From an uncultured Candidatus Rokubacteria bacterium (GTDB lineage Bacteria > Methylomirabilota > Methylomirabilia > Rokubacteriales > DASRDR01), in the NCBI GenBank assembly GCA_963826115.1, contig CAWGVS010000002.1, positions 32,001-96,000 of the forward strand: DNA of 64,000 nucleotides, in the 5' to 3' direction. The position numbers and the translations under genes were made by a program. The notes beneath the pieces were generated by a model that ran no database searches, had not been told where the DNA came from, and saw only the letters and a program-made list of their open reading frames with translations. Below are positions 7,644 through 59,016 of this stretch, in pieces; position 1 is the first letter of the stretch; each line of letters opens with the position of its first letter.

Positions 7644-7888
7644 CGCATCGCCTCGAGGCAGGAGCGCCGAAAGAGAACAGAAGGAATCAAGCGACTTGCG
7701 AAGCGCAGAGTCGGCGAATTGGCTGCCAGTCTCCGGTGGCCTTCCGGCTCATGAACTACCCGGGCCCCCTGCCCGCCGGGTCCGATCCTTAACCCGGTCG
7801 CGACGTCGGCGATGTCCGAGGAAGTGCCAACGTGGCTCGCGCGGCATCCTCGCACGTCGCACCGAGGTGCTCCCGACCGCCGAGGCGT

Positions 7889-10800
7889 TCATCGTCGGCG
7901 CACAGCCCGTTCGAGAGCGACCGCGCGGACGAAACCGTCTTCCGTATCAGCATGAACGGGTCCGCTATCCGGCACCATGGCAGCCGCCGCCAAGTAGTCA
8001 TGGGGCCTGCACGTGAACACAACGATCTGAAAGGAGCGAGCCTTGTCTATGAGCAACGCGCGGAACCAGTCCATACGGTCGCCGTCGCTCTGGACCAGCT
8101 GATCATCCAGGACGATGGTCGTACAGAGGTACTCCCCAAGGGAGATGCGGTACAACGTCGAGAGCTGCTCTCGCGTTCCGACCGAGATCCGGTCGATCTC
8201 CCGAGCCGCCCCGGCTGCTAGTACGCCCTCTGTGGCGAGGTGGGCGGTCAGCTGCACGCCCTGGTAACGCTGTTTCGTCAACTCTTGGAAGCGACCCGCG
8301 ATGGCTGGGGCAAGGGCCTGGCCCAGATTGTTGGCTTGAGCGGCGTCGGCCTCCTTCATCTGCTCGAGCAGGAGCCGCCATGCCTCATAGTCCTCTTCGA
8401 TCTCTCGCTCCTGGCGCTCGGCGAGGTCGAATGCCTCCAAGGCGTCGCGTAGCCGCTCGCGTGCTACGGCGCCACCGACCTGCTCGAGCGCACCGTGTGC
8501 CCGTTGCATCTCACGATCGATATCATCGAGGACCCGTTCGGCGGTCGCCAGGGTATCCCGAGATGCGGACAGCTCGCCCGCGCTGATGTCCCGCGCTGGA
8601 ACCGGAAGAGCGGTGTGCCGCGCCGATGCCGTGGAGAGCATCGCCTCCGCGGCATCGAGATCGTGCGCGGCGCGCAGTTCCTGCAGATCCGCAAGGTGGC
8701 GCATCTCGGAGGCGTGTTCGGCGGTCGCCTGTGTGACAGCCTCTTGAGCAGTGTTGGTGGCCGTGCGCGCCGCATCCGCCTTGGCGCGCGCACCGGCTAC
8801 GGCTTCCTCCATCTTCCGCGTGCGTGTCTCGATCGAACGCTCCAAGGCGCCGAGCTCCGCCGCGATCCTCTCCCGATCCGAGAAGGCGGCACGGAGGGAC
8901 TCTTCGGCCGCGCTCGCCGACTCGGCGATGCCAGATGGAAACTGCCGAACGGCGGCGTCCCGCGTCTGCTTGGCGGCGTCGAGAGTCGCCCGTGCCGCCC
9001 GAACACGCTCCTCCGCGACGCTGTGCGTCGTGGCCGCCTCTCTCGCCGCGCTCCTCGACTTTTCCGCCTCCTGCGACGCTTGTTGGCGACGAGCCCCGAG
9101 GGCGGTGCCCGGATCCTTGCCCAACCGGTCGAGCTCAGCGCTCAGACTCTCGAGGGACACGTCGCCGAGGGCCGCATGGCAGGCCTCGGCACGGGAGAGA
9201 GCCGCGGTCAGCGCGTCTTTCGCGCCGGCGAGAGCCGAGATGTCCCGGCGAACGACATCCAAGGCCCGGTCCATTTCTTTGAGGCTCGCATCCAGCTCCC
9301 GCGCCTCCGCCACCCGCGTTTCGAGCACATCCAGATCAGACGCGCCGGCCGCGGCGAGGTGCGGCGCCACCTCACCCGCCCAGCGGGCTTCCAGGCGGCG
9401 GACAGTGTCCTGCGCCTCACGGCGCCCCCCTCGGACACGAACGGTGGCGAGGTCGGCTATGCCGACTTCGACATCACTGTTCGCTTCGATCTCGAACGGC
9501 TGCGCGATGACTCCCGGATCGTCGTGGGCCCCGTCCTTGCGGACGTGGAGGTCGAGGGGGGCCCGCGGAGTCACGGTCACGACGAGGCCGACATTCAACG
9601 CCCCGCGGGCACCCGCCAGGTTCGCCGCGAGGGCTCGCATCGGCGCCAGGGCTTCGGGAGCGGGGACAATGATGGCGGCACGGCGCTTCGCCGCCTCCAC
9701 GCGTTCGGCAACCGTCTTAAGCAGTTGCGCCTGAAGGCCGGCCTCCTTGTCCACGCTGGAGCGGCTGTTCACGACCTGGCCGTCGGCCGCTTGCGCTGCC
9801 AGGGCGCGTTCCAGCAGGTCATACCTTCGCAGTTGCTCACCGACCGCCCTCTCCCCTTCGTCCGCCCGGGACCACTCCTCCCGCACCTGGGCGGCCATCG
9901 CTTCCAATCTGCCGTGTTCCTCCTCGGCGCGCAGCACTTCATCGACGCACTTCTGCGCGGCGGCGACTGCATCGATCGCCTTTTGGGCCTCCATCGCCAC
10001 CTGCTCCGTTGCGGACCTGCGAAGTTCAAGGCCTTGACGCGCCACGGTGTCGGCCATGGCCGGATCCAATCCCGCTGCGCGCGCGGTCTCCTCGGCGGCC
10101 TTCAGACCATCATCCGCTGTAGCCTGGACGTCCCGAGCGATCTTCAGAGCCTGTCTAGCGTTGTCCCGCTTCCCAACAAGCAACTCGACGTTCTGACCGG
10201 CGACGACAACCTCCTCATCCATCTTCCGAATCTGGCCGACCGCCTCCCGCGCGACACGGACGCACTCTGCACCCGCCGCAAGCTCCTCGGTCTGCCTGGT
10301 GAGCAGCTCCACCGCGGCGAGCCCTTCCGTGGCGACCCTTAGGTCCTCCTGATACTGGACGCGCTTCGACACCAGGTCCCGAAGCTGACTCTCCACGCCC
10401 TCGGAATCGTGGACCACCTTCTGCCAACGCTCCTTCTCCTCTCGCGCCGCGTTCAGGCGGTCGGCGGCGGCCTTGAAGACACTCCCCCGCGCCGTCTTCT
10501 TGGCACCCTTGTCCGTGTAGGCTGCGTCTCGTCTGGACTGCACTTCCCGAAGCAAGCCGACGAACAGCGGATCCTGCGCAAGCGCCTGCAACGCCGCGGC
10601 GATCCGTTCCTTGCCCGTTGGCGCGGTGTCGCGTTCCAGGCTTCCCTCAAGGATCGCGCTGACGTCGGCCTGTGTGGACAGCAACGCGGTGGCCAGAAAG
10701 CTGGTCGGAAGACCCTTGGCGGCCCCCGAGCCGCCCGGCTCGGGGATTCCCCAGCGCAGGATCTCCCGCAGTCTGGCATCGACCCTCCGGGCACGTTCCA

Positions 10801-15575: not shown

Positions 15576-15653
15576 TGGCGGGGTCGACGGGACTTGAACC
15601 CGCGGCCTCTGGCTTGACAGGCCAGTGTGCTAACCAGGCTGCACCACGACCCC
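15576..15653 (-). tRNA. tRNA-Asp (GUC)
   Basis: Reverse complement folds as a cloverleaf: acceptor GGGGTCG/CGACCCC, anticodon arm CTGGC-CTGTCAA-GCCAG, T-loop TTCAAGT, G discriminator, encoded CCA. Confidence 0.98.
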
Positions 15654-29018: not shown

Positions 29019-30650
29019 GTGAAGGCGTTCCGCGACGAGCTCATACCCGGGCTTCGGTTCGCACTCGCCCTGCCCAGATTCCTCCGATGCCCGGTAACCT
29101 CGGTGGAGGCGCGAGTGGAACTGGCCCGGCGCTTCAGAGACCGAGAGACGGTTTTCATTGAGACTGTGCGCACGACCATCTACGGGCGGCCCCGCAGCCC
29201 GTACAGGTGGCTCCTCGCCCAGGCCGGCTGCGAACCCGGAGACCTCGAGGGCCTCGTGCGTCAGGATGGCGTGGAGGGCGCTCTCAAGACGCTCTACCGC
29301 CAAGGCGTCTACCTGAGCGTCGAGGAGTTCAAAGGGCGACGCCCCGCAATAAGAGGAAGCGCGAGCCTAAAGGTCGCCCTCGGCGAGCTCCGGAATCCCC
29401 TCTCGAGCGCACAGATCGTCCGCTCGACCGGTGGCAGCGGCGGGTCCGCGGTCCCGGTGGCGGCCGATCTGGCCTTCATCCGCGACCGGGCCATCAACAC
29501 GGTGCTCAATCTCGAGGCCCGAGGGGGCCTCCGGTGGCGCCACGGCATTTGGACCGTCCCGGGCGGCAACAGCCTCGTCCCGCTCCTGCGCCTCGCCGCC
29601 GCTGGCGCGCGGCCGTCGGCGTGGTTCACCCTCGTGAACCAGGCCGCGCCGGGGCTCCACTGGCGATACCGCGCCAGTGGAGCGGTGCTCCGGCTCGCGG
29701 GCCGGCTCGCGGGCCGTCCAATCCCCGCCCCCATCCACGTTCCGCTTCAGCGGCCGCAACCCATTCTTCGTTGGATGGACGCGGTCCGGATCGCGGGGGG
29801 CGTACCGCACCTGTTCACCTTCGTCAGTTCAGCCACCCGGCTCTGCCAGGAGGCGCTGGCGACAGGCCAGGACCTGCGTGGTGTCCAGTTCTCCATCGCG
29901 GGCGAGCCCGTGACCACGGCGCGCCTGGCCACCATCCACCGCTCCGGCGCCGAGGCTCAGGCCAACTACGCGGCGTCCGAGGTTGGCGCGATCGGCGAAG
30001 GGTGCCTCCAGCCCACCACCCCCGACGACGTCCATCTGCTCCACGATCGGGTGACGATCGTTCAGCCTGGCGCCGACGCCGGGGCTGGCCTGCCACCCCG
30101 GGCCCTTCTCGTCTCGGCGCTGCGACCCTACGGGCCCCTCACGCTGCTGAACGTGTCCCTCGGCGACGAAGCCGACCTGGTCGACGGGCAGACGTGCTGT
30201 CCCCTGGCGGCGCTGGGCTGGACGAGCCGGCTTCGTCGAATCCGAAGCTTCGAAAAGGTCTCGGCAGGCGGTATGACGTTCCTGGACGTCGACATCACCC
30301 GCGTGTTGGAGCAGGTGCTGCCCGCCCGCTTCGGGGGCGGCCCCACCCACTACCAGTTGGTCGAAGAAGAGGATGCCAATGGAACCCCGCGGCTGACCCT
30401 GCTGGTCGATCCCGCCGTCGGCGCCGTGACGCCTGGCGAGGTAGTGGCCACGTTCCTGGCGGCGATCGGCCAGGGCGGCGGCGCCGAGCGAGTCATGGCC
30501 CTTGCGTGGCGAGACGCGGGGATCCTCCGGATCGAGCGTCGCCCCCCGCTCGCCACACCCTCCGGAAAGATCCTGCACCTGCACGTCGCTCGCGGAGCGT
30601 CAGGGCCCGCGACTCGGTCGGATCGGCCGCCGAGCCCGCGCATATCCTGA
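29019..30650 (+). CDS. PaaK/GH3-like adenylate-forming enzyme paralog 1
   Basis: P-loop-like RSTGGSGG, AGEPVT, YAASEVG, LNVSLGD, IRSFEK...GMTF, SGKILHLH. Start uncertain. Confidence 0.72.
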   Translation: MKAFRDELIPGLRFALALPRFLRCPVTSVEARVELARRFRDRETVFIETVRTTIYGRPRSPYRWLLAQAGCEPGDLEGLVRQDGVEGALKTLYRQGVYLSVEEFKGRRPAIRGSASLKVALGELRNPLSSAQIVRSTGGSGGSAVPVAADLAFIRDRAINTVLNLEARGGLRWRHGIWTVPGGNSLVPLLRLAAAGARPSAWFTLVNQAAPGLHWRYRASGAVLRLAGRLAGRPIPAPIHVPLQRPQPILRWMDAVRIAGGVPHLFTFVSSATRLCQEALATGQDLRGVQFSIAGEPVTTARLATIHRSGAEAQANYAASEVGAIGEGCLQPTTPDDVHLLHDRVTIVQPGADAGAGLPPRALLVSALRPYGPLTLLNVSLGDEADLVDGQTCCPLAALGWTSRLRRIRSFEKVSAGGMTFLDVDITRVLEQVLPARFGGGPTHYQLVEEEDANGTPRLTLLVDPAVGAVTPGEVVATFLAAIGQGGGAERVMALAWRDAGILRIERRPPLATPSGKILHLHVARGASGPATRSDRPPSPRIS

Positions 30651-42816: not shown

Positions 42817-45800
42817 ATGCAGTGCCCGCGGTGCCGTCACGAGAACCCGCCGCCCGCGAAGTTCTGCCAGGAGTGCGGGCAGCGGCTCCCCGCCGCCTGC
42901 CCGGCGTGCGGCGCGCCGCTCCCGGAGTCGGCGAAGTTCTGCCCGGAGTGCGGCCACCCGGTCGGGGCCGCCTCGGCGCCGGCCCCGGCGGCCGCGCCAG
43001 CGCCGGTCGCGCCGGCGGCGCGGACACCCGCCGCCTACACGCCGCGCCACCTCGCCGAGCGGATCCTCACCACCCGGAGCGCGCTGGAGGGCGAGCGGAA
43101 GCCCGTCACGGTGCTCTTCTGCGACCTCGTCGGGTCCACCGCGCTCGCCGAGCGGCTCGGGGCGGAGGGGATGCACGTCCTCGTGAGCGCGTTCTTCGAG
43201 ACCGCGCTCGCCGAGGTCCATCGCTACGAGGGCACCGTCAACCAGTTTCTCGGCGACGGCTTCATGGCGCTCTTCGGCGCGCCCCTCGCCCACGAGGACC
43301 ACGCGCGGCGCGCCGCCCTTGCCGCGCTCGGCGTCGCCCGCGCGCTCCGCGACCGGCCGATCGCCGTGGCCCCGGGCGCCGACGTCGCCCTCACGGTCCG
43401 CATGGGCCTCCACACCGGCTTCGTGATCGTCGGCGCGATCGGCGACAACCTGCGGATGGACTACACCGCCATCGGCGACACGACGCACCTCGCCGCGCGC
43501 CTCCAGCAGCTCGCCGAACCGGGCGCGATCCTCGCGAGCGAGGCCACGTGGCGCCAGGTCGAGGGCTACGTCCGCGGGGAGCGGGTCGGGCCCGCCCAGG
43601 TCAAGGGCCGCACCGAGCCCGTCGTCGTCTTCCGGCTCCTCGGCGTGGGGCCGCGCCGCTCGCCGCTCGAGGGGCTCGGCCCTCGAGGGCTCAGCCACTT
43701 CGTCGGCCGCGAGCGCGAGCTCGAGACCTTGCGCGATCTCTTCGCCCTCGCCGAGGAGGGGCGCGGGCAGGCCGTCGGCATCGTCGGGGAGCCGGGCGTC
43801 GGCAAGTCGCGCCTCCTCCTCGAGTTTCGCCGGGGCCTCGCGGGGCGCCGCGTCACCTACCTTCAAGGCCGGTGCCTCTCGTACGGGGCGGCCATCCCGT
43901 ACGTGCCCGTCATCGACGTCGTGCGGGCGAACTGCGGGATCGCCGAGACCGACGGGCCGGACGCGGTCGCCGAGAAGCTCCGCTTCGGGATCCAGGAGAT
44001 CGGCATGGACCCGGGCGCCGCGGCGCCGTACCTCCTCCGGCTCCTGGGCGGCCGGGATCCGAGCGGCGCGCTCGATGGGCTCTCGCCCGAGGTGATCAAG
44101 ACCCGGACGTTCGACGCCCTCCGGCAGATGTCGCTCCACGGGAGCCGCCGGCGCCCACTCGTGCTGGAGATCGAGGACCTCCACTGGGTGGACCGGACGT
44201 CGGAGGAGTACCTCACGTTCCTGGCCGAGAGCCTGGCGGGCGCGCCGGTCTTGCTGATCGCGACCTACCGGCCCGGGTACCGGCCGCCCTGGAGCGACCG
44301 GTCGTTCGCGACCCAGCTCTCCCTCCGGCCCCTGGCCGGGGACGAGAGCCGGTCGATCGTCCGCTCGCTGCTCCCTGCCGGCGACGCCGGCGCCTTCCCT
44401 GGAGCAGCTGATCCTCGACAAGGCCGAGGGCAATCCCTTCTTTCTCGAAGAGCTGACGCGTGCCGTCGGCGAGCAGGGCCTCGGGGCGGGCCTCCCCGTC
44501 CCCGACACCGTCCACGGCGTCCTCACCGCGCGCATCGACCGGCTCGCCGAGGACGACAAGCGCGCGCTCCAGACCGCCTCGGTGCTCGGCCGCGAGTTCA
44601 CGCCGGCCCTCCTCGCCGCCATCTGGGACGGGCCCGGTCCCGTCGAGCCACGCCTCCGCGAGCTCGCGCGGCTCGAGTTCCTGTTCGTGCGGCCGGCCGG
44701 CGACGAGGTCGTGTACGCGTTCAAGCACGCGCTCACCCAGGACGTGGCGGAGGCGACGCTCCTGCCGTCGCGGCGGCGCGAGCTCCACCACAAGGCCGGC
44801 GACGCGCTCGAGCGCCTGAATCCCGAGCGCCTCGACGAGCTCGCGCCGCGGCTCGCCCACCACTACGGCGAGGCGGAGGCGTGGGCCCCGGCCGCGCGGC
44901 ACGCGCTCGCGGCGGCCGAGGCGGCCCGCGCCGTGTTCGCGAACCGGGAGGCGCTCGTCCGCTACGACCTGGCCATCCTCGCCGCCGACCGCGCCGAGCT
45001 CCCGCCGGCCGAGCGGCTCCGGCCGCGAGAGGGGCGCGCGGACGTCCACGCCGTCCTCGGCGACTTCGAGCGCGCCCGCGCGGACTACGAGGCGGCCCTC
45101 GGGCTCGCAAGCGCGGTGGCGGACCCCCTCGCAGAGGCGCGCATCCTCGGCACGCTCGCGGCGCTCTGGGGCGGCCACAAGGACTACGACCGGGGCCTCG
45201 CGCTGAGCCGCGAGGCGGTCCGCGTGGCGGAGCGCGCGGGCGACACCGCCGAGGCGCGGCGAGTCTCCGCCGAGACGCGGCTCCGCGTCGGCCTGATGGA
45301 GCTGAACCTCGCGCGGATGACCGCGAGCCGGCAGGACCTCGGTCGCGCCCTCGCGCTCTTCCGCGAGCTCGACGACGTGGGCGGCGAGGCGCGGGCGCTC
45401 GACGCCCTCTCGATGGCGCACCTCGTCTCGGGAGACCTCGACGGCGCCATCGGGCACGGGCAGGAGGCGATCCCGCGCCTGGTCCAGGTCGGCGACCGGA
45501 ACACCGAGGCCTCCTGCCGCGCGAACCTCGCCTGGTCCCTCCTCTACCGCGGGCGCCGAACGGAGGGCGAGCCGAGCATCGCCCAGGCCCTCGAGCTGGC
45601 CCGGGCGATCGGCGCGCGGGCGATGGAGACCTACGTCCACGCGTCGGCGGGCGGGCTGGTCGAGGCGTACGGCGAGTGGGGCCGGTCCTTCAGCGAGTCC
45701 GAGACGGCGCTGGCGATCGCCCGGGAGCTCGGCCACCGCGAGTGGACCGCCGCGGCCCTCTCGGCGCTCGGGCGCGTGCGCCGGAACTGCGGCGACACGG

Positions 45801-46399
45801 CCGGCGCCCGGGCCGGCCACGAGGAGATGCTCGGTATCGCGCGCGAGCTCGGTAGCCCGCTCTGGATCGCGGACGCGCTGAGCGAGCTGGGACACGACCT
45901 CGTGGCCGCGGGCGAGCTCGGCGAGGGCGAGCGCCGGCTCGCCGAGGCGATCGACGCCGCGCGCGAGGCCCTCCAGTTCACGGTGCGCCCCAGGATCGCC
46001 CTGATGGAGCTCGCACTGCGAACCGGGCGGCCGGGCGATGCGCTCGACCAGTGGGCGAGGCTCCCGCCCAGCGCCGCCCAGTTCGCCGTGTACGCGCTCG
46101 ACGCGCGACGCGTGGAGGCCGAGGCCCTCGCGGCCCTCGGGCGCTGCGACGAGGTCGAGGCGCGCCTCCGGGCGGTCCGGGCCGACGCCGCGACGCTCGG
46201 CGGCATCCCCGCCGGCTGGCGCGCGAGCCTCGCGCTGGCGCGCCTCCTCGAGGCCGCCGGTCGCGGGGACGAGGCGCAGGCCGCGCGCGCCGACGCCCGC
46301 CGCGGGCTCGAGAGGGTGGCGGCCGGGCTCACGGGCGCGCCCGACCTCCTCCGCGGGTTCAAGGCATCGGCCCCGTACCGGGAGGCCTTCGGCAGCTAG
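42817..46399 (+). CDS. double zinc ribbon + class III adenylate/guanylate cyclase + STAND AAA ATPase + TPR; frameshift near 44397
   Basis: CPRC..N....KFCQECG, VLFCDLVGST, QFLGDG, GDTTHLAARLQ, GEPGVGKSRL, IEDLHW, GNPFFLEEL (shifted frame), FKHALTQDVA, TPR-like helices. Confidence 0.88.
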
Positions 46400-50537: not shown

Positions 50538-51780
50538 ATGTCGCTGACCCTGCTCAAGAACGCGAAGCTCCTCGACCCCACGAAGTCCGACCTCCAGGAC
50601 GGCGTGGCCGTGCTCGTCGAGGGCGGCCGGATCCGGGAGGTCTCGCCCCGGCCGATCCGCGCGGCCGGCGCGACCGTCGTCGACGTGGGCGGCCGGACGC
50701 TCATGCCGGGACTGATCGACTGCCACGTCCACGTGTTCCTGCCCGAGGTCAACATCCGGGCGCTCGAGGCGGTGCCCCTCACCCTTCTGACCGCGCGGGC
50801 GGCGCCCCTCATGCGCGCCATGCTGGACCGGGGCTTCACGACCGTGCGCGACACCGGCGGCGCCGACTGGGGCATCCGGGAGGCGGTCGAGCGCGGCTAT
50901 CTCCCCGGCCCGCGGCTCTTCATCGCGGGGCGCGCGATCGGCCAGACGAGCGGCCACAGCGACCCGCGGCGACGGACCGACCTCGGCGGCGGCTGCCCGA
51001 CCGAGAACGCCATGGCGTTCACCATGGCCATCGCCGACGGCGTGACCGAGGTGCGGCGGGCCGTCCGCGAGCAGCTCCGCCAGGGCGCCGACCACATCAA
51101 GATCATGGTGTCGGGCGGCGTGGCCTCGCCCTACGACCCGCTCGACAGCCTCCAGTACTCGACCGGACGAGATCCGCGCCGCGGTCGAGGAGGCCACGGC
51201 GTTCAAGCGCTACGTCTGCGCTCACGCCTACCCCGCGAACGCGATCGCGCGCGCCATCGAGTGCGGAGTCCGAGTGATCGAGCACGGGAACCTGATCGAC
51301 GCGCCCACGGCGAAGCTCATGGCGAAGAAGGAAGCGTTCCTCGTCCCGACGCTCGTGGCCTACGACGCGATCCGCCGCCACGCCGCCGAGTTCGGCATGG
51401 GGCCGGAGAACCTCGAGAAGAACACGGTCGTGCTGGAGGCGGGCCTCCGCTCTCTCGAGCTCGCCAAGCGCGCGGGCGTCCGCATGGCGTTCGGGTCGGA
51501 CCTCCTGGGCCAGCTCCAGCCCGACCAGTCGAAGGAGTTCCTCCTGCGGAGCGAGGCGCTGAGCCCGCAGGAGATCATCCACGCGGCGACGATCGTCGGG
51601 GCCGAGCTCCTCGGTCGCCCCGGCGAGCTCGGAGTGATCGCGCCCGGTGCCCTCGCCGACCTCCTGGTGGTCGACGGGAATCCCCTGAAGGACCTGGGCC
51701 TCTTCCAGGAACAGGGCGCGCACATCCCGGTCGTGATGCAGGACGGGCGCTTCCACCGGAACCGGCTCGGCGCCGGATGA
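50538..51780 (+). CDS. metal-dependent amidohydrolase (Xaa-Pro dipeptidase-like), frameshift near 51165
   Basis: TLMPGLIDCHVH, GFTTVRD.GG, IKIM.SGGV.S, AHAY, IEHG, GSD, ADLLVVDGNP. Confidence 0.88.
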
Positions 51781-51859
51781 CGGCCACCGTGGCGGTCGGC
51801 AGCTTCGCCGCGCGGCCGACGTCCTGGCCTGAGCGACGCGGGCTTCGCGAGGGCGTCAG

Positions 51860-53047
51860 CTACTCGGCGGGTACCAGGCCGCGCGCCTGTGAGGCGCGGT
51901 AGTCGACGAGCTGGGCGATGGTCGCGTCGATGGCGGCGCCGAGCTCCGCGTGCCACGGCTGCGACGCGCTGTGGGCCAGCAGCAGCCGCTCCACTCGCGC
52001 CGCGTCGAGCCGGGCGGGCACGTTCCGCTTGAGCCGGGCGAGCTTCTTGCGCCGGCGGGCGCTCAGCCGGGCGCCGTCGTTTCCCTCGCGCTCGCCCGCC
52101 GCCTCCGGATGAAATCGCCGGTCGGCCTCGATCCGGTGCAGCGCGCGGAGGCTCTCGCCGGCCACGTAGTCGGCGGGTCGGAGCGGACCGCCCCGAATCT
52201 CTCGCAGTCCGTCGTAGAAGGGCCGCAAGTAGTCGATGTCGTGGATTCGGGGCAGGTCGTTGCTGGCCATGGCGAGCCGCTCGAGCCCCACGCCGATCCC
52301 GGTGGCACCGGTCTCGAGCGGCTCGAGCCCCACGATCTCCTCGCGGCGAGGCTCCGACCCACGGAAGCGTGGCCGCCACACCAGGTACTCGGCCGTCGCC
52401 ACGTCGAGCAGCCGCGGGTGGCCGGACACCCCCATGTCGACATGGACCTCGTTCCGGTAGCCCCACGGCGTGGGGCGATGCACGTGCAGCGCGAGCAGCG
52501 TCGCGCGCGTGGCGTCCGCCGTGAGGTTCGCGTCGGGCACCCCGGCCGCGAGGAACGCGTCCCGGGAGATCGTGTCAGGAGGAATGGCGCCGTCGAACCG
52601 GTACGCCCCGCCGGTGAGGTCGGCGATCCGCCCGCCGGCCGAGTAGCTCGCGTGGATGCGCGCCGGTGGAATCCCGACCGTCTCGAGGAGCCGGATCAGC
52701 TCGGCGATCTGCCAGCGCTGGAGTGAGTCGTAGTCCGGGCGGACGCGAAGAGCGATCTCGCCGCACAGGTCGCCCATCTCGAAGACCCCCAGGTAGCGCA
52801 CCCCGTCGGCCGTCGACAAGAACGCGAAGTCGGCGAGGCGGACGCAGCTCTGGATGGTCGAGAAGACGTAGTCCCGGTGCCAGTCGAGATAGCCGCCGAA
52901 CTCCCGCAGCCAGTGGTGCTCGGTGGAGCTCAGGTTGAAGTCACCGGGGAAGGCCGCCGTGACCAGGGGCGCTCGGCGAACGGGCTGACACCCCGCATAC
53001 TTCGGCCAGCCGGCGAGGAGCGCGCGGAGGCGCGCGTAGGGAATCAT
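51860..53047 (-). CDS. stand-alone alanyl-tRNA synthetase catalytic-core paralog
   Basis: STIQSCVRLAD, RYLGVFEM, PWGYRNEVHVD, GIGVGLERLAM and DIDYLRP match AlaRS motifs Q.C.R..D, RH.TFFEM, GPCGP.SEI..D, DTGMGLERL and TDLF.P in order. 395 aa; no editing or C-Ala domain. Confidence 0.72.
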   Translation of the reverse strand: MIPYARLRALLAGWPKYAGCQPVRRAPLVTAAFPGDFNLSSTEHHWLREFGGYLDWHRDYVFSTIQSCVRLADFAFLSTADGVRYLGVFEMGDLCGEIALRVRPDYDSLQRWQIAELIRLLETVGIPPARIHASYSAGGRIADLTGGAYRFDGAIPPDTISRDAFLAAGVPDANLTADATRATLLALHVHRPTPWGYRNEVHVDMGVSGHPRLLDVATAEYLVWRPRFRGSEPRREEIVGLEPLETGATGIGVGLERLAMASNDLPRIHDIDYLRPFYDGLREIRGGPLRPADYVAGESLRALHRIEADRRFHPEAAGEREGNDGARLSARRRKKLARLKRNVPARLDAARVERLLLAHSASQPWHAELGAAIDATIAQLVDYRASQARGLVPAE

Positions 53048-54657
53048 CGCGCGGAGTTGGCCGGGGCCGCGGGCCCCCGGGCGGGGGGGCCGGAGTGGCA
53101 GTGGAGCACCTTGCCCGAGCGCTCGCCGATCGGCGCCCGGACCTCGACCCGGAACACGCCGGTGTCCCGCCAGAGAAGCGCGGCCACGCGGGCGGCGCCG
53201 GCGCCGGCGCCGACGTGATCCAGAAAGGCGGTCGCCACCGCGCGCGGGTCGACCGGGCCCACCCGCGGGCTCACGAAGAGCACGAGGCCCGGGCGGCCGG
53301 CGGTATCTTCCTCCTCGACCAGCTGGTAGTCCGCCCCGGAGCCCCCGAACCGTGCGGGCAGCACGGTCTCCAGCGCCGCGACCGCATCCGTGTCAAGGAG
53401 CGTCATCCCGCCGGCCGTGAGCTTCTCGAAGCTCCGGACCGCGTGGAGGTGGGTCGTCCACCCGAGCGCCTCCAGCGGGCACCCGCAATGGCGCCGGGTC
53501 AGGATCCCCTCATCGCCGAGCGAGACGTTCAGGAGCGTGAGGGGCGCCGTCGGGCGGAGCGACGACACCAGGAGGGCGCCCGGCGGGAGCAGCGCGCCGG
53601 AGGCCGACCCGGCCTGGACGACGGCGTGCAGGTCGTCGAAGACGTGGATCTCGTCGGGCGACGCGGGCGCCAGGCAGCCCTCGCCGATCCGGCCCACCTC
53701 CATGCTCCCGTAGTGCGGAAGGGCGTCGACACCGGCCGCCCGGATGACGGAGAGACGCGCGGGGGTGACCGGCTCGCCGCCGATGGACATCCGGCTGCCC
53801 GCGAGGTCGAGCCCCGCCTCGCGGGCCCCGTGGCACAAGGCGACGGCCGAGCTCGGGAAGGTCGCGAGGTGCGGTGTCTGGCCGGCGTCGAGACAGCGAC
53901 GCATCCACGCTCCGACCGTCCGGGTACCATCGAGCGGCGCCCAGACAGGCGGCGGCAGCCTCGTGCCAACGACGCGACCGGCCCAGCGGAGGGCCCGGGC
54001 GGTCCAGGCATAGCGCGGATCGAGCTCGCGACTCGCGGGATCGATCTGGGAGAACCATGCCTCCGTCGGGACGCCGAGCGCGGCATGCTGGAGGAGGACG
54101 ACGAGCGCGGCGCCGCCCGGTACCACCCAGAGCGCGTGGCGCCAGCCCACCCCCTGGCGAGCCTCCAGCACGAGCCGCGCGTTCACGGCCCGATCACGAA
54201 AGTAGCGGATGTCCAGCGACACACGCGTCGCCGGGCCGCGGCTCCCGCTGCTCCGGTAGACCATGTGCGAGGCGGTCAGCGGGTTCGCGAGGCTCGCCGG
54301 GGCCACGTCGAAGGTGGTCGACCCCCGGATGACCGGCCGCCGGCCCTTCGCCTCGTCCGCAGTCAGGAAGACCCCGTGGCGCGCCAGGCGGGTGAGCGTC
54401 GACTCCACGCCGTCCTGGGCGACCATCCGCTCAAGATCGGCGTACGCGCAGCCCGCCATCGCCAGGAGCCGAGCGTAGGGGCTCGCCGCCTGGCCGAAGG
54501 CCGCGCGGCGGACCAGCGTGAGGAAGTCGGCCGACCGGGCCTCCTGGCGAGACCGGAGGGCGGCACGCGCTATCGGGCCGCTCATGGGTCGGCGGAAGAG
54601 GCCGGGGAGCCGCGCGACCAGCCGCACCCCTCGTATCGCGTCGGCCGCCCAGGACAC
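53044..54657 (-). CDS. PaaK/GH3-like adenylate-forming enzyme paralog 2
   Basis: RSSGSRG, GGEPVT, YGSMEVG, LNVSLGD, VRSFEKLTAGGMT, SGKVLH; colinear with 29019-30650. Confidence 0.72.
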   Translation of the reverse strand: MSWAADAIRGVRLVARLPGLFRRPMSGPIARAALRSRQEARSADFLTLVRRAAFGQAASPYARLLAMAGCAYADLERMVAQDGVESTLTRLARHGVFLTADEAKGRRPVIRGSTTFDVAPASLANPLTASHMVYRSSGSRGPATRVSLDIRYFRDRAVNARLVLEARQGVGWRHALWVVPGGAALVVLLQHAALGVPTEAWFSQIDPASRELDPRYAWTARALRWAGRVVGTRLPPPVWAPLDGTRTVGAWMRRCLDAGQTPHLATFPSSAVALCHGAREAGLDLAGSRMSIGGEPVTPARLSVIRAAGVDALPHYGSMEVGRIGEGCLAPASPDEIHVFDDLHAVVQAGSASGALLPPGALLVSSLRPTAPLTLLNVSLGDEGILTRRHCGCPLEALGWTTHLHAVRSFEKLTAGGMTLLDTDAVAALETVLPARFGGSGADYQLVEEEDTAGRPGLVLFVSPRVGPVDPRAVATAFLDHVGAGAGAARVAALLWRDTGVFRVEVRAPIGERSGKVLHCHSGPPARGPAAPANSAR

Positions 54658-54659
54658 GG

Positions 54660-56042
54660 TCAGATCTGCCCGGTTGCGCCGCACGCCTCGATGCGTCGGA
54701 CGTACGCGGGGTCGTCGTAGCGGGAGAGGAGGAAGGCGGAGGCGTAGTCCGGCAGCGGCGCGCCGGTGACGTGGGCCGCGGCCAGCTCGCCGCCGGCGCA
54801 GCTCGCCATGATGCCGAAGCCCGAGTACGCGCTCGAGACGTAGGCGCCCTCGACCGGGAGCGGTCCGATGAGCGGCCGGTTCTCGCGCGTCTTCGCGTAG
54901 TAGCCGCCGTCGACGTAGGCGCGCGGCATCGGGTCGAGGTAGCCTCGGAAGCCCGGCAGCATGCGCGCCATCCCGCGGATCACGAGCTCGGTGTAGAAGG
55001 GCGGCTCCGGCATCGGGAACACGACCTCGGTCGCCGCCGAGTCGTACGACCAGAGCACGAGCAGCGTCCGGCTCTCCGGGCTCGCGCCCTCGGGGCGCGT
55101 GTGGACGCCCGGCGGGAACGGCTCGAGCATCCAGCGGAGCTCGGGATCCGCCGCGAGGGCCGCCCGCTCCTCGGCACTCCACGGAAGCGTCTGCCCGTCG
55201 TCCCAGATGAGGAACGGCGCGTCCCGCGGGACCGCGCCGAGCGTGTCCTCGATCGCGATCTTGTGGTGCTGCTCGGAGAACACGGGGAGCGTGAGCCCGA
55301 GGAGCCGCGCGGCGTCGGGAAGGAGCGGCCCCGCCGCGAGGACCAGGCGCGCGGTCGCGAGCGACCGCGAGCCGCCCGGCCCGTCGATCCGGACCCCGGT
55401 GACACGCCCTCCGACGACGTCGATCGCCGCGAGGCGCCCGGTGACGAGCTCGGCGCCGGCCCGGCGGGCGAGCTCGAGGAGATGCATCCCCAGCTGCTGC
55501 CCGGAGAGCCACCCACAGCGGCGCGCGTGGAGGAGCGCCACGGTGTCGTCGGCAACGTACGGGAAGTGGCGGCGGATCAAGGCGCGATCGAGGAGCAGGT
55601 CGATCCCCGCGGGCTGGGCATGCCAGTCCCCCGCCGAGGGCGGCGGGTAGACGGCCCGAGCGGCACCGCCGTCGTGGACCCGGAGCGGCCCCGCGCCCCA
55701 GCCGGCCACGGTCTCGGCCATCGCCCGGAGCTCGGCGGCGCGCGCCGGCGCCGCCGTCCCGAAGACATAGCCCCGCCGGTTCATGCGGAACACGTTGTCG
55801 CTCGCGTCGGCGAGATGCTCGAGGAGGTCGATGCTGCGGTTCATGAACCGCACCATCGCGTCGTCGGGGCCCGGCCAGAAGTTCCGGTAGGCCTCGGTCG
55901 ACTTGTCGCTCGTGAGCGACAGCGGCGGCCGCTCGTCCACGAGGACGACCCGCCGCACGCCGTGGCGCGCGGCCAGGTGGTAGGCGGCCGCGACGCCGGC
56001 GATGCCGGCGCCACAGACGACGACGTCGGCCGCGGGCGTCAC
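54660..56042 (-). CDS. FAD-dependent oxidoreductase (DAO/sarcosine oxidase beta-like)
   Basis: VVVCGAGIAG, LAAGP, GGYY.KT.ENRPLIGP, SGFGIM. Confidence 0.88.
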   Translation of the reverse strand: MTPAADVVVCGAGIAGVAAAYHLAARHGVRRVVLVDERPPLSLTSDKSTEAYRNFWPGPDDAMVRFMNRSIDLLEHLADASDNVFRMNRRGYVFGTAAPARAAELRAMAETVAGWGAGPLRVHDGGAARAVYPPPSAGDWHAQPAGIDLLLDRALIRRHFPYVADDTVALLHARRCGWLSGQQLGMHLLELARRAGAELVTGRLAAIDVVGGRVTGVRIDGPGGSRSLATARLVLAAGPLLPDAARLLGLTLPVFSEQHHKIAIEDTLGAVPRDAPFLIWDDGQTLPWSAEERAALAADPELRWMLEPFPPGVHTRPEGASPESRTLLVLWSYDSAATEVVFPMPEPPFYTELVIRGMARMLPGFRGYLDPMPRAYVDGGYYAKTRENRPLIGPLPVEGAYVSSAYSGFGIMASCAGGELAAAHVTGAPLPDYASAFLLSRYDDPAYVRRIEACGATGQI

Positions 56043-56061
56043 GAGCCCGGGACCCGCGTGG

Positions 56062-57402
56062 CTAGTCGCGGAGGCGGCGGACCACCCGGTCGACGGCGCC
56101 GACCAGCTCGTCGATCTCCGTCTCGGTGGTCATGACGCCGAGGGCGCCCGCGCACGTGGTCTGCATCAGGATCCCCTCGTTCAGCAGGCCCGTGTAGAGA
56201 CCGCGCGTCATCTCGGCGTCGTCCGCGACGACGTCGCGGTAGCTCCGGATCGGCCGCGCGTTGAAGTGGATCCCGAACAGCGAGGCGGCCCCCGTCACCT
56301 GGGTCGGCACCCCGGTCGCCTGGAGCGTCCGGCGGAGCTTCTCCCGGAGCGACTCGCCCAGCTCGGCGAGGCGCCGGTAGATCGGCGGCGTCAGCGCGCG
56401 CATGACCGCCTCCCCGGCGACGAGCGTCATCGGGTTCGCGTTGAACGTCCCCGCGTGGGCGATGCGCGCCCCGCCGGCCGCCGTGGGGTCGTACTGGGCC
56501 ATGATGTCCCGGCGGCCGCCGAAGGCGCCGATCGGCAGGCCCCCGCCGATGATCTTCCCGAAGCAGGTGAGGTCCGGCGTCACGCCGAAGAGCTCCTGGG
56601 CGCCCCCCGGCGCGACCCGCAGGCTCTGCACCTCGTCGTAGATCAGGACGATGTTGAGCTCCTCGGTCAGCTTCCGGATCCCGCGAAGGAACTCCGGGTC
56701 GCCGGGGACGTAGCCGAAGCTCGAGACGATCGGCTCCATGATCAGGGCGCCGATCTCGTCCTTGTGGGCGCGGAGGATCCGGTCGCACGCGGGCAGGTCG
56801 TTGTACGGGAGCACGACCACGTCCCGGAGGACGCCCTCGGGCTGGCCGGGGTACTCGGGGATCGCCGACGGCCCCTTCGGATCCAGGCGGTCCGCCGAGG
56901 GCCGGACGCTCACCGCCACGTGCTCGTGAGCGCCATGGTAGCCGCCCTCGAACTTCGCGAGCTTGTGCTTGCCCGTGAACGCCCACGCGGCCCGGATGGC
57001 CATGAGCGTCCCCTCGGTGCCCGAGTTCGTGAAGCGGATGGTGTCGAGCGAGGGGATGCGGTCGCAGAGGAGCCGCGCGACCCGGACCTGCACCTCGGTC
57101 GGGGTGCTGAAGGCCGTGCCCTTCCGGATCTGCTCGCCGAGCGCCTCGACGACCATCGGGTTCGCGTGTCCCACGATGAGCGTCGTCGCGTTCAGCATGA
57201 AGTCGAGGTAGCGGTTCCCGTCGACGTCGTAGACGTAGTGCCCGTCGCCGTGGTCCGCGAAGAAGGGATAGGGCGAGAAGTAGGCGGTGCCGCGGGAGCT
57301 CCCGCCGGGCAGGACCTGCTCGGCCTCGGCCTGGAGGGCCCGGGACTTGGGGGTCTTCGCGGTGTACCGCTCGATCTCTCGGGCGACGGCCTTCGACGTC
57401 AT
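56062..57402 (-). CDS. class III PLP aminotransferase (glutamate-1-semialdehyde aminomutase-like)
   Basis: DVDGNRYLD, NSGTE, GGYHG, LIYDEV, FGKIIGGGLP, HAGTFNANP; RBS GGAGG. Confidence 0.92.
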   Translation of the reverse strand: MTSKAVAREIERYTAKTPKSRALQAEAEQVLPGGSSRGTAYFSPYPFFADHGDGHYVYDVDGNRYLDFMLNATTLIVGHANPMVVEALGEQIRKGTAFSTPTEVQVRVARLLCDRIPSLDTIRFTNSGTEGTLMAIRAAWAFTGKHKLAKFEGGYHGAHEHVAVSVRPSADRLDPKGPSAIPEYPGQPEGVLRDVVVLPYNDLPACDRILRAHKDEIGALIMEPIVSSFGYVPGDPEFLRGIRKLTEELNIVLIYDEVQSLRVAPGGAQELFGVTPDLTCFGKIIGGGLPIGAFGGRRDIMAQYDPTAAGGARIAHAGTFNANPMTLVAGEAVMRALTPPIYRRLAELGESLREKLRRTLQATGVPTQVTGAASLFGIHFNARPIRSYRDVVADDAEMTRGLYTGLLNEGILMQTTCAGALGVMTTETEIDELVGAVDRVVRRLRD

Positions 57403-57587
57403 GGACTCTCCTCCGCATTCGGCGCGCTCGGACCGCCGCGCCTGCGCGGAAAAGGATTCCACGACCGTCCGCGCGCCGCAAGGCCCGCCCGGACGTCGAG
57501 GTCCGGGGTCAGATCCCGACGTTGCCTTTTTCCGCGCCGGAAGTCGAAGTCAGGGCCGGACCCCGGCGCGTGCTTTACCCTGGGGCG

Positions 57588-57989
57588 ATGGAGGCGCGGG
57601 TCCGCCGGGCCCTCGAGACCGAGCGCACCATCGACATCACCACGATCGGGCGCACCACGGGGCGCCCGCGGCGGATCGAGATGTGGTTCCACAACCTCGA
57701 CGGCCGGCTCTACCTCACGGGCACACCGGGGACCCGCGACTGGTACGCCAACCTGCAACAGCACCCGGTCTTCATCTTTCACCTCAAGGGCCGGGTGCGG
57801 GCCGACCTGCCGGCGCGCGCCACGCCCATCGTGGAGCCGGCGCGGCGCCGGGCCATCCTCACGCCGCTCCTCGACCGTCTGGGCCGGGCGGCGGACCTGG
57901 AGGCGTGGGTCCGCGAGAGCCCGCTGGTCGAGGTGGAGATCTTCGCCGTCGAGCCCGGAGCCGGCGCCGGCGAACCCCCGACGGCCTGA
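57588..57989 (+). CDS. deazaflavin-dependent nitroreductase-like (DUF385) split-barrel protein
   Basis: ITTIGRTTGRPRRIE.WF, RDWYANL..HP. Confidence 0.78.
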   Translation: MEARVRRALETERTIDITTIGRTTGRPRRIEMWFHNLDGRLYLTGTPGTRDWYANLQQHPVFIFHLKGRVRADLPARATPIVEPARRRAILTPLLDRLGRAADLEAWVRESPLVEVEIFAVEPGAGAGEPPTA

Positions 57990-58134
57990 CGGCTTCCCGG
58001 CCAACTCACTCGGCCCGGTCCGGACGGCCGGGCGGGCCGGCGCCGCCTGGACACCCCCGGCCGCGTCGGGTACCGTCGGCGAGGCCACGCCGGGATCCGG
58101 GCGCGCCCGGAAGCGGGGCTCCGAAGGAGGCGCG

Positions 58135-59016
58135 GTGGACCGGCCCCAGAGCGTGACGCGGGCGCTCGCCTACATGGTGGGGGCCGCGGTCGCGTTCGCG
58201 ATCCTGAACGCCGCGGTCAAATCGCTCCGCGGCGAGATCCCGACGGTCCAGCTCGTGTGGGTGCGGACGCTGGGCCACCTCCTCTTCGTGATCGCCGCGT
58301 TCGCCCCGCGCCACGGGTGGAAGCTCTTCGAGACCCGGCATCCCGTCTTCCAGCTCGTCCGCTCCTGCCTCCTCCTCACCTCGACCGTCTTCTACTTCAC
58401 GGCGATCGGCTTCGTCACCCTCGCGACCGCCGCCACGATCTCGTTCATGACGCCGTGCCTGATCGCGGTGCTGGCGGGGCCGATGCTCGGCGAGCGCGTC
58501 GGGCCCCGCCGCTGGGCCGCCGTGGGCTTCGGCTTCCTCGGCGTGCTGATCGTGGCGCGCCCGGGCGCGGACACCGCCAACCTCGCGTCCCTCCTGGTGC
58601 TCGGGAGCGCGGCCGCCTCGGCCCTCTACGACCTCCTCACCCGGCGTGTCGTCGCCGCGGACCCGCCGGAGACCGCCGTCGGCTACGCCGCCGTCGTCGG
58701 CACGGTCGTCCTGGCCATGGTGGTGCCGTTCGTGTGGACTCCGCCGCGGTCCTGGTCGAGCCTCCTCATCATGCTGAGCCTCGGACTCTGGGGCGGGCTC
58801 GGGCACTACCTCACCGCCCGCGCGTACCACTGCGCGCCCGCGTCGGTGGTCGCGCCGTTCTCGTACCTGCAGCTCGTGGGAGCGGCGATCAGCGGCTATC
58901 TCGCGTTCGGCGAGGTGCCGGGCGCCGGCGTGTGGCTCGGCGCCGGGCTGATCGTGGCGAGCGGGCTCTTCCTCGTCTACGCCGAGGGCCGCGCTCGCCG
59001 CGCCGCGGGCGCCTGA
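58135..59016 (+). CDS. DMT/EamA family transporter
   Basis: Ten TM segments; LGERVG..RW.AV..GF.GVLI..RPG, AS.VAPF.Y; AAGGAGG RBS. Confidence 0.92.
   Translation: MDRPQSVTRALAYMVGAAVAFAILNAAVKSLRGEIPTVQLVWVRTLGHLLFVIAAFAPRHGWKLFETRHPVFQLVRSCLLLTSTVFYFTAIGFVTLATAATISFMTPCLIAVLAGPMLGERVGPRRWAAVGFGFLGVLIVARPGADTANLASLLVLGSAAASALYDLLTRRVVAADPPETAVGYAAVVGTVVLAMVVPFVWTPPRSWSSLLIMLSLGLWGGLGHYLTARAYHCAPASVVAPFSYLQLVGAAISGYLAFGEVPGAGVWLGAGLIVASGLFLVYAEGRARRAAGA

Follow-up and report, generated by a model that had tools for sequence, protein, structure and literature searches.

A stand-alone paralogue of the alanyl-tRNA synthetase core, with an apparently rebuilt alanine pocket, at the end of a four-gene operon in a Rokubacteria genome

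Shortened or repurposed relatives of alanyl-tRNA synthetase (AlaRS) have been described from a few systems. As described in a review, AcmF of ascamycin biosynthesis is a truncated AlaRS-like protein with aminoacylation and tRNA-recognition domains only; it carries the changes N219Q and D232E, is reported to have lost most of its ATP-binding residues and uses Ala-tRNAAla to acylate an amine (PMC12945691). The mini-AlaRS of Tupanvirus is presented as a shortened natural AlaRS (PMC10036535), and a preprint describes a small-AlaRS from Candidate Phyla Radiation (CPR) bacteria, DPANN and Asgard and gives the alpha subunit of bacterial glycyl-tRNA synthetase (GlyRS alpha, PF02091) a common ancestry with the AlaRS catalytic domain (bioRxiv 10.1101/2023.05.29.542759). 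Here we analysed a 64,000-nucleotide stretch of an uncultured Candidatus Rokubacteria genome (the window; contig CAWGVS010000002.1 of assembly GCA_963826115.1, positions 32,001 to 96,000), in which the last gene of a four-gene operon encodes a stand-alone paralogue of the AlaRS core that we name AlaL. Reuse of a synthetase core for adenylate chemistry or ligand sensing, which AlaL may share, is familiar from AsnA, HisZ, EpmA/PoxA, BirA-type ligase-repressors and the amino acid:carrier-protein ligases; AsnA, HisZ, EpmA and the carrier-protein ligases descend from other synthetases (Asp, His, Lys and Ser), and the BirA type from the biotin-ligase branch. In concept, AcmF appears to be the closest described relative of AlaL. 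Our literature search found AcmF, small-AlaRS and mini-AlaRS, and no account of a DPANN/CPR-centred stand-alone paralogue or of a link to TrmBL2, though supplements and subscription papers lay outside the search and this is not proof of absence.

The operon consists of the following genes, in order of transcription:

56062-57402, minus strand: gene 1 (AT), class-III (GSAM / beta-transaminase-like) pyridoxal-phosphate aminotransferase, 446 amino acids (aa), ATG start, PF00202 at 2.6e-59
54660-56042, minus strand: gene 2 (DAO), DAO-family flavin adenine dinucleotide (FAD) oxidoreductase, 460 aa, PF01266 at 2.1e-33, N-terminal GxGxxG
53044-54657, minus strand: gene 3, divergent PaaK-like (ANL superfamily) adenylate-forming enzyme, 537 aa, GTG start
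51860-53047, minus strand: gene 4 (AlaL), stand-alone AlaRS aminoacylation-domain paralogue with the first half of the tRNA-recognition domain, 395 aa

The stretch around the operon has a G+C content of 72-76%, and because of this the raw lists of open reading frames (ORFs) are crowded with false frames; third-position G+C was used to choose the real genes, which left the four on the minus strand. The initial annotation had described them as tightly packed, with a class III aminotransferase and a DAO-type flavoenzyme in front, and both the coordinates and the Pfam matches bear this out: genes 1 and 2 are separated by 19 bp, genes 2 and 3 by 2 bp (TGA-CC-GTG), and genes 3 and 4 overlap in an ATGA, whilst a ribosome-binding site (GGAGGAG, 57408-57414) precedes the ATG of gene 1.

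The relationship of AlaL to AlaRS is beyond the reach of routine searches. No Pfam or NCBIfam model matched AlaL at E<=0.1, a PF01411 search of the whole genome found the alaS gene on contig C12 and a fragment on contig C5 only, leaving AlaL unmatched, and a single-sequence search of solved structures with AlaL reached human AlaRS at an E of only ~1. A word-indexed search of 5.8 billion proteins returned 103 relatives, which where named are hypothetical proteins and which carry no Pfam domain save the weakest match (PF01411). An alignment of 46 of these relatives, from bacteria and archaea, was used as a profile against the PDB, where AlaRS fragments made up 10 of the 11 matches (best E 0.005), and hhalign of this profile with one built from eight canonical AlaRS of this genome and other carrier genomes gave 97.3% (E 2.3e-11) over 259 columns, placing AlaL residues 1-287 on AlaRS residues 4-269. 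This confirms the observation of the initial annotation, which had called the gene a stand-alone AlaRS catalytic-core paralogue without editing or C-Ala domains. The ~125 residues that follow motif 3 gave no significant match when compared with the AlaRS recognition domain directly (E 0.19); they do match the tails of distant, short AlaRS-like proteins (95.6%, E 1.1e-8), whose tails match the AlaRS tRNA-recognition domain over its first ~120 residues (98.7%, E 1.6e-16). By way of this intermediate profile, homology links the AlaL tail to the beginning of that domain, and AlaL as a whole is, on profile comparison, an AlaRS aminoacylation domain joined to the first half of the tRNA-recognition domain. 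The second half of that domain, which when complete reads G3:U70, the editing domain and C-Ala are all missing.

An exhaustive HMMER search over 1.84 billion representatives yielded 251 AlaL family proteins at E<=0.001, of which 149 reach <=1e-10 and 89 reach <=1e-30, and full-length members are mostly ~350-410 aa long among the best 150 of the 251. When 25 of the weaker matches were aligned with AlaL and one canonical AlaRS as control, PF01411 matched 19 of the 27 rows, the control counted and AlaL itself unmatched. The ESM Atlas held no structure for AlaL or its homologue P0094, and by features it returned for these two only clusters of 348-412-aa hypothetical proteins, with PF01411 in 15-23% of their members. 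AlaL is a single-copy gene in its genome. Like GlyRS alpha, it is a short protein made of an AlaRS-related catalytic domain; unlike GlyRS alpha it carries an AlaRS-type helical tail, and PF02091 matched nothing anywhere in the genome, AlaL included.

The class-II motif equivalents of AlaL are located as follows:

52775-52858, minus strand: motif 2 equivalent, TIQSCVR ... VFEM, AlaL residues 64-91, aligned to QKCVR ... FFEM of AlaRS
52274-52294, minus strand: motif 3 equivalent, GVGLERL, AlaL residues 252-258, placed by alignment

The residue positions agree with the earlier reading that QSCVR (66-70), FEM (89-91) and GLERL (254-258) are retained and that the FTNAGM region has diverged, here to FNLSSTE. 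Across all 46 aligned family members R70, D73, F89, E90, the loop glutamate E200, G254, E256 and R257 are invariant, and Q66 is invariant or nearly so. AlaL therefore shares with canonical AlaRS (class IIc, PF01411) the catalytic domain and the start of the recognition domain, together with the motif-2 Arg, FEM, the Glu of the GPxG..E loop and the motif-3 GxER. It differs from canonical AlaRS, besides the missing domains and the missing PF01411 match, in that the motif-2 GGKHND insert is deleted, in the replacement of the Met, Trp, Asn and Asp of the alanine pocket, and in being accessory, not universal.

A review gives the alanine- and lactate-binding residues of the Escherichia coli enzyme as M43, R69, W170, N212, D235 and G237 (PMC12467997). 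We transferred this numbering to the AlaRS of the Rokubacteria genome by motif, not by alignment with the E. coli sequence, and from there to AlaL by hhalign. The pocket Arg (R69) is kept and 43 of 46 members have a small residue (Gly, Ala or Ser) at the Gly position, so that four of the six positions are replaced: Met (M43) has become Glu43 in all 46 members and Trp (W170) has become Leu185 in 45, Asn (N212) corresponds to the variable position 225 (Arg 14, Lys 7, Asn 6, others), and Asp (D235) to position 250, where Ile (19), Gly (14), Val (7), Leu (5) and Ala (1) are found. In AlaRS this Asp lies four residues ahead of GLER, counted from its first Gly; the AlaL of the window has Gly250 in its place, and the distant short AlaRS-like proteins are also without the Asp. 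New invariant residues (N38, S40, W195 and R198) have appeared within the same motifs. The adenylate machinery of AlaL thus looks intact and the alanine pocket does not, and since the adenylate residues are kept and the alanine pocket is changed, a different acid substrate would be expected, not a second AlaRS. Judged by its residues, this is a new, unnamed branch of AlaRS-derived proteins in which adenylate-type residues are kept and the pocket appears rebuilt.

Set beside AcmF, by description and not by sequence, AlaL is alike in its truncated AlaRS architecture, in the changed Asn and Asp and in its place among small-molecule enzyme genes. It is unlike AcmF in keeping ATP-binding residues which AcmF reportedly lost, in having no Pfam match where AcmF was recognised as AlaRS-like by domain BLAST, and in having no second AlaRS in the window where AcmF is accompanied by a dedicated AlaRS, AcmD.

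AlaL does not replace the housekeeping enzyme. The initial annotation had asked for a full alaS elsewhere in the genome, and a complete gene of 898 aa with all four domains is indeed present on contig C12. We tested ten further carrier genomes (five DPANN, three CPR, one deltaproteobacterial metagenome-assembled genome (MAG) and the Rokubacteria MAG), and all ten contained a PF01411 gene above the cut-off. Because canonical alaS accompanies AlaL in every genome tested, AlaL is an extra gene wherever we examined it. The canonical AlaRS of the small DPANN and CPR carrier genomes is only ~565-605 aa long, which fits the small-AlaRS as described in the preprint (10.1101/2023.05.29.542759). Small-AlaRS and mini-AlaRS are true AlaRS recognised by PF01411 and serve as the alanine-charging enzyme of the cell or virus, unlike AlaL, which coexists with them and whose alanine pocket appears lost.

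Scans for AlaL yielded 97 loci, 34 from species-representative genomes and 63 metagenomic. Carriers include one Rokubacteria MAG of the same genus as the genome of the window (86% identical), a few Myxococcota, delta-proteobacterial and Pseudomonadota MAGs (52-61%), many Woese-, Pace- and Nanoarchaeota (36-50%) and CPR bacteria (29-36%), whilst in the phylum of the window AlaL is confined to 2 of 251 genomes, and within the genus just 1 of the 14 further genomes has it. The AlaL family is rare and is centred on DPANN archaea and CPR bacteria. A tree of 52 rows (ORFs of >=330 aa from the 34 genome loci, five metagenome loci and 14 database proteins, the other loci being left out) was midpoint-rooted, so that its root is not established; in it all AlaL sequences from large-genome bacteria form one clade (SH-aLRT 100), which is nested among DPANN and sister to a Woesearchaeota sequence (95), and the CPR sequences are deepest. 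This suggests that a few soil bacteria with large genomes received AlaL by transfer, the donors being archaea with small ones, with the direction inferred. Two irregular forms were seen among the loci: a Nanoarchaeota MAG (L024) holds two tandem AlaL copies (6871-8004 and 8001-9194), the first on a very long branch (length 3), and in L028 and L104 AlaL is split into two ORFs.

The three enzymes upstream of AlaL could be named with differing confidence. Gene 1 matches hemL-type NCBIfam models at 1e-109, under the cut-off (TIGR00713 at 365 bits against 527, NF000818 at 367 bits against 398, so that neither hemL equivalog cut-off is reached), and GntE at 5e-91; its nearest solved structures are the omega/beta-type class-III aminotransferase 6k8h (3e-113), followed by GSAM, ForI and beta-phenylalanine aminotransferases. 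A paralogue 44% identical to gene 1 lies on contig C12 and may be the real hemL. DAO gave weak structural matches to sarcosine oxidase beta and dimethylglycine dehydrogenase, and has one full-length copy in the genome, the other tblastn match being 29% identical over 265 residues. For gene 3, the label PaaK/GH3-like adenylating enzyme given in the initial annotation is weaker than was implied: no Pfam family matched at E<=0.1 (PF00501 included), no PaaK model rose above its cut-off, and the only NCBIfam match was NF041878 (E 0.0025, 16 bits against a cut-off of 700). What survives of the label comes from the gene-3 family profile, which in the PDB reaches AjiA1 (6wuq) and the PaaK-like ligase 6siw at 5e-4, both over profile positions 257-401, and phenylacetate-CoA ligase at 6e-3, all weak matches. 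The family consensus contains a P-loop-like SSGSRG, YGSxE, GD and a C-terminal Lys, motifs which we take to be ANL-like, and in the family alignment the C-terminal K516 is invariant.

Gene 3 belongs to a large family, with at least 1244 homologues, none of the 120 among the matches listed bearing a family name. In the genome of the window this family has 17 full-length paralogues (46-55% identical, three at 38-42%) on contigs C1, C4, C5, C6, C10 and C12, a second gene-3-type paralogue lies inside the window itself (29037-30611, plus strand), and the contexts of these paralogues are diverse, with a classical PaaK-like gene in four. Of the 251 phylum genomes 27 have a member of the family, as do 13 of the 14 further genomes in the genus; the family has expanded across the genus, with members that are nameless and without family assignment.

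All four genes of the operon are under purifying selection, with dN/dS values of 0.18-0.27 against the 86%-identical relative L003 (0.19 for AlaL). Metatranscriptome contigs from two runs of one study, 95-99% alike, span parts of all four genes, one crossing the junction of AlaL and gene 3 and two that of gene 3 and DAO; these are contig sets that carry no level, strand or transcript ends, and because DNA may be present in such libraries they are weak evidence of transcription.

We searched the ORFs of the 97 loci with the four proteins of the window, finding AlaL in 94. The initial annotation had made consistent linkage of AlaL homologues to the ligase, oxidase and aminotransferase genes the test of its pathway proposal, and across the family this linkage is not consistent: gene 3 lies beside AlaL in 4 of the 94 loci (L003, L047, L048 and L049, AlaL 78-97% identical), DAO in two of these four (L003 and, at its contig end, L047) and the aminotransferase in one (L003). 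Three of the four are short contigs that stop inside gene 3 or DAO (L047, L048 and L049), and further genes are not visible on them. All four loci share the amidohydrolase downstream of the operon, L003 also shares an upstream PNPOx-like gene, and the four represent one syntenic lineage and not independent observations. Seven further pairs of gene 3 and AlaL, down to ~63% AlaL identity, may be inferred from coinciding longest-contig sizes (3133, 17902, 6158, 4224, 7228, 8665 and 2837), which are shared by seven AlaL homologues (63-83%) and seven gene-3 homologues (61-81%). A 684-aa protein (P0095) was considered as a fusion of a PaaK-like enzyme with AlaL and rejected as a frameshift-ridden read-through, showing adjacency on one more contig only.

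In the sister bacterial group the neighbours are different. An unnamed protein of ~350 aa, here called protein X, adjoins AlaL in all six loci with downstream sequence:

L004:4690-5895, minus strand: protein X
L005:4712-5581, minus strand: protein X
L006:9211-10284, minus strand: protein X
L050:8220-9362, minus strand: protein X
L051:7148 onward, minus strand: protein X
L052:1356-2396, plus strand: protein X

Protein X has an invariant GRIDY ... QVWEINTNP and at least 873 homologues, with all 120 among the matches listed unnamed, and a genome search shows that it is absent from the genome of the window. Pfam, NCBIfam and two PDB profile searches gave no match, so that a guess from the motif (GRIDY..IQVWEINTNP) that it is an ATP-grasp ligase is unsupported. 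In three loci of this group (L004, L050 and L094) a classical PaaK-family ligase is found one or two genes from AlaL, with matches to NF045666 at 1.6e-37 and 3.7e-32 and to PF00501. Because this is a different, classical PaaK ligase near AlaL in a sister group, the association of AlaL with adenylating ligases recurs. The partners of AlaL change with the clade.

A third kind of neighbourhood is found in DPANN, where the recurrent neighbour of AlaL is a TrmB-family protein of ~248 aa. Among the AlaL loci 43 TrmB-family ORFs were counted, 38 of them divergent and upstream, and 23 of those 38 at a distance of 26-135 bp. After dereplication at 95%, a TrmB-family gene lies within <=2.5 kb of AlaL in 29 of the 62 groups outside the bacterial clade and in none of the 10 groups within it. 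The profile of this neighbour matches TrmBL2 over its full length (E 9e-9). In addition, five long AlaL members of 522-543 aa (in locus L034 of a Berkelbacteria MAG, at 7944-9575, and P0103, P0238, P0252 and P0271) carry a ~140-residue C-terminal extension that is homologous to the C-terminal, non-DNA-binding domain of the TrmBL2-like neighbours (for example L010:6716-7453, minus strand), with E values down to 8e-27. This fusion of AlaL with the TrmBL2 domain is the strongest family-wide functional link we found; a genome search found no TrmBL2-like protein or domain in the genome of the window. Small ORFs that separate AlaL from the TrmB-like gene (clusters 3, 7 and 15) showed no carrier-protein features, and no carrier-protein gene was seen beside AlaL in the 97 loci.

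Deep-branching, CPR-type AlaL genes have other neighbours again. In a tRNA scan that covered 57 of the 97 loci, a tRNA gene lies on the same strand within <=130 bp of AlaL in five distinct loci:

L029:7889-7976, same strand as AlaL: tRNA-Ser
L031:7796-7884, same strand as AlaL: tRNA-Ser
L033:7745-7832, same strand as AlaL: tRNA-Ser (two different anticodons among the three tRNA-Ser genes)
L033:9141-9213: further tRNA site
L089:6863-6937: tRNA-Asn
L091:1432-1504: tRNA-Arg, before AlaL
L091:2809-2992: two tRNA-Lys, after AlaL

Genes for tRNA enzymes are found nearby, as L091 runs on into a CCA-adding enzyme and L089 is preceded by genes for a TtuA-like thiolase and a TrmI-like methylase. Directly upstream of the tRNA-Ser and AlaL in L029, an ORF (7256-7804, plus strand) carries the PaaX central domain (PF20803, 2.4e-22); PaaX regulators are tied to phenylacetyl-CoA sensing in known systems.

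The reading that we tentatively prefer, and which we hold to be a plausible but far from secure account, is that AlaL is an ATP-dependent ligase for a non-alanine acid, and that in this operon it acts together with the three upstream enzymes (PaaK-like ligase, flavin amine oxidoreductase and aminotransferase) on an amino-acid derivative with an amide link. AlaL would keep the class-II machinery for binding ATP and forming an acyl-adenylate, and with its rebuilt alanine pocket would most likely activate some small carboxylic acid that is not L-alanine, perhaps a hydroxy acid or an unusual amino acid, and would then hand the acyl group to an acceptor, which could be an amine or conceivably the 3' end of an RNA. 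The family is old, rare and mainly at home in DPANN and CPR, with a few large-genome soil bacteria apparently having acquired it by transfer; translationally coupled here to the PaaK-type ligase, and placed behind an FAD amine oxidoreductase and a GSAM/beta-transaminase-type enzyme, it could plausibly serve with them to assemble, or to dismantle, such a derivative. The data themselves establish the homology, the residue pattern, the gene order, the distribution and the purifying selection; catalysis, a substrate other than alanine, amide chemistry and joint action with the enzymes upstream are deduced from these. Several points weigh against this account. No result points to a substrate, the pocket geometry is itself deduced from aligned residues, and what the motif-2 and motif-3 Arg hold may be an adenosine or phosphate that does not belong to ATP (A76 of a charged tRNA would be one case). 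Only close relatives, with synteny on either flank, show the linkage to oxidase and aminotransferase, so that this linkage is not independent evidence of joint function; the gene-3 family has 17 paralogues in varied contexts, and gene 3 may have come to lie beside AlaL recently and by chance. Moreover, the strongest family-wide partner is a TrmBL2-like DNA-binding protein and no enzyme, which sensing or regulation fits at least as well as biosynthesis does. The proposal of the initial annotation was a non-ribosomal amide-forming or tRNA-dependent tailoring pathway, or a ligase for a non-canonical amino acid: because the alanine pocket is altered, a non-translational or non-alanine role is likely, the biosynthetic-operon idea is only partly supported, as the operon is lineage-specific, and the coupling to PaaK-type ligases is the part that recurs.

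The alternatives draw on the same observations. That AlaL works independently of the upstream enzymes, with the packing of the four genes an accident of insertion in one lineage beside one of many PaaK-like paralogues, and uninformative about the substrate, we regard as rather unlikely: the varying partners between clades, the restriction of the cassette to close syntenic relatives and the 17 PaaK-like copies in diverse contexts all favour it, whereas the ATGA overlap and the 2-bp and 19-bp gaps, the persistence of the AlaL and PaaK-like pair to ~63% AlaL identity (by coinciding longest-contig sizes), the PaaK-family ligase near AlaL in the sister group and the similar dN/dS of all four genes do not. 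An AcmF-type transferase, in which AlaL would take an aminoacyl-tRNA from the normal synthetase and move the aminoacyl group to an amine made or processed by the neighbouring enzymes, carries about the same modest probability and is a serious rival. It would account for the shared aminoacylation and tRNA-recognition parts and for the alteration of the same Asn and Asp positions as described for AcmF, and the same-strand tRNA genes in five deep-branching loci lend it modest support, as do the tRNA enzymes in L089 and L091; it is harder to reconcile with the motif-2 and motif-3 Arg, Glu and Phe kept in 46 of 46 members, when AcmF is reported to be without most ATP-binding residues, with the lack of a dedicated second AlaRS comparable to AcmD (the PF01411 search found the housekeeping alaS and a 64-residue fragment) and with the loss of half of the tRNA-recognition domain. 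A working mini-AlaRS, that is, a second enzyme charging tRNAAla with alanine like that of Tupanvirus, is very unlikely and deserves almost no weight, even though a natural AlaRS without editing and C-Ala domains can be active (PMC10036535) and AlaL still has its aminoacylation domain, with some of the tRNA-recognition domain: of the six alanine-binding positions four carry other residues, Asp and Asn among those lost, PF01411 does not recognise AlaL, and AlaL is accessory (2 of 251 phylum genomes) with a canonical AlaRS always alongside (10 of 10 tested).

A role as sensor or regulator leads back to DPANN. AlaL would here bind or adenylate a small ligand and signal through the winged-helix regulator, with the logic of BirA split over two proteins (in BirA the adenylate serves as co-repressor), and the soil-bacterial gene would be a transferred remnant in an unrelated operon. 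The TrmB-family genes in 29 of 62 groups, mostly divergent at 26-135 bp, the full-length match to TrmBL2 and the TrmBL2-like domain fused to the end of five AlaL members speak for such a role; a divergent regulator with a common ligand-binding domain would equally fit an ordinary inducible enzyme, the strictly conserved catalytic-type residues speak against a purely non-catalytic function, and the regulator is missing from the genome of the window and from all 10 bacterial-clade groups. We consider such a role improbable as an account of AlaL. A broader scheme, in which AlaL is a third unnamed lineage of the AlaRS/bacterial-GlyRS-alpha superfamily, is speculative and to be held just as loosely: its ancestral task, in DPANN and CPR, would be to make a non-alanine adenylate or to charge an RNA 3' end with a non-alanine ligand, the product being read by the TrmBL2-like protein through the shared domain as a split BirA-like switch, and in soil bacteria it would have become an amide former alongside PaaK-type ligases.

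Whichever of these applies, enzymes descended from synthetases are known to carry out unusual chemistry, with AcmF, EpmA, AsnA and the carrier-protein ligases as examples, and AlaRS itself has reportedly been shown of late to activate lactate. The AlaL family escapes Pfam and NCBIfam and is a hypothetical protein in every source that names it, and since it seemingly keeps the adenylate machinery whilst new invariant residues appear to have reshaped the pocket, it offers a well-defined place to look for a new substrate of the class-II core. Its concentration in DPANN and CPR, the link to a TrmBL2-like protein through fusion and the apparent transfer into soil genomes with PaaK-type ligases provide testable handles in lineages that are hard to study. 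Should AlaL prove inactive, it would be a rare AlaRS-derived counterpart of non-catalytic paralogues such as HisZ.

The surroundings of the operon are shared in part with its relatives. Divergent from it upstream are an EamA transporter gene and a PNPOx/F420-type gene; the former, on the plus strand and ending at 59016, is the opposite-strand DMT transporter that had been noted nearby. Downstream, the following gene converges on the operon, with TRAP-transporter genes beyond it:

50538-51780, plus strand: amidohydrolase, PF01979 on the C-terminal half

This amidohydrolase is broken by a frameshift near 51164-51166, and its N-terminal and C-terminal halves align with residues 14-222 and 223-425, respectively, of an unbroken ORF of L003. 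In the relatives L003 and L048 the ORF is intact, the gene is also found in L048 and L049, and it is syntenic in all close relatives; the split copy is either a pseudogene or an assembly error, and a part for the amidohydrolase in the pathway is uncertain. Promoter and terminator scans of 51000-58500 found nothing above shuffled controls. At Rfam gathering thresholds the window contains only a tRNA-Asp (15579-15653), with no riboswitch or T-box near the operon. ARAGORN called a tRNA-Arg(CCG) at 45452-45532 (minus strand), which is without Rfam support at the gathering score and lies inside the reading frame of a TPR protein (44258-46399, plus strand), and is probably a false call. Finally, a block of ~30 kb (4000-34000), which holds the second PaaK-like paralogue, has a G+C content of 64.5-69.6% against 71-77% on both flanks and may be a foreign island.

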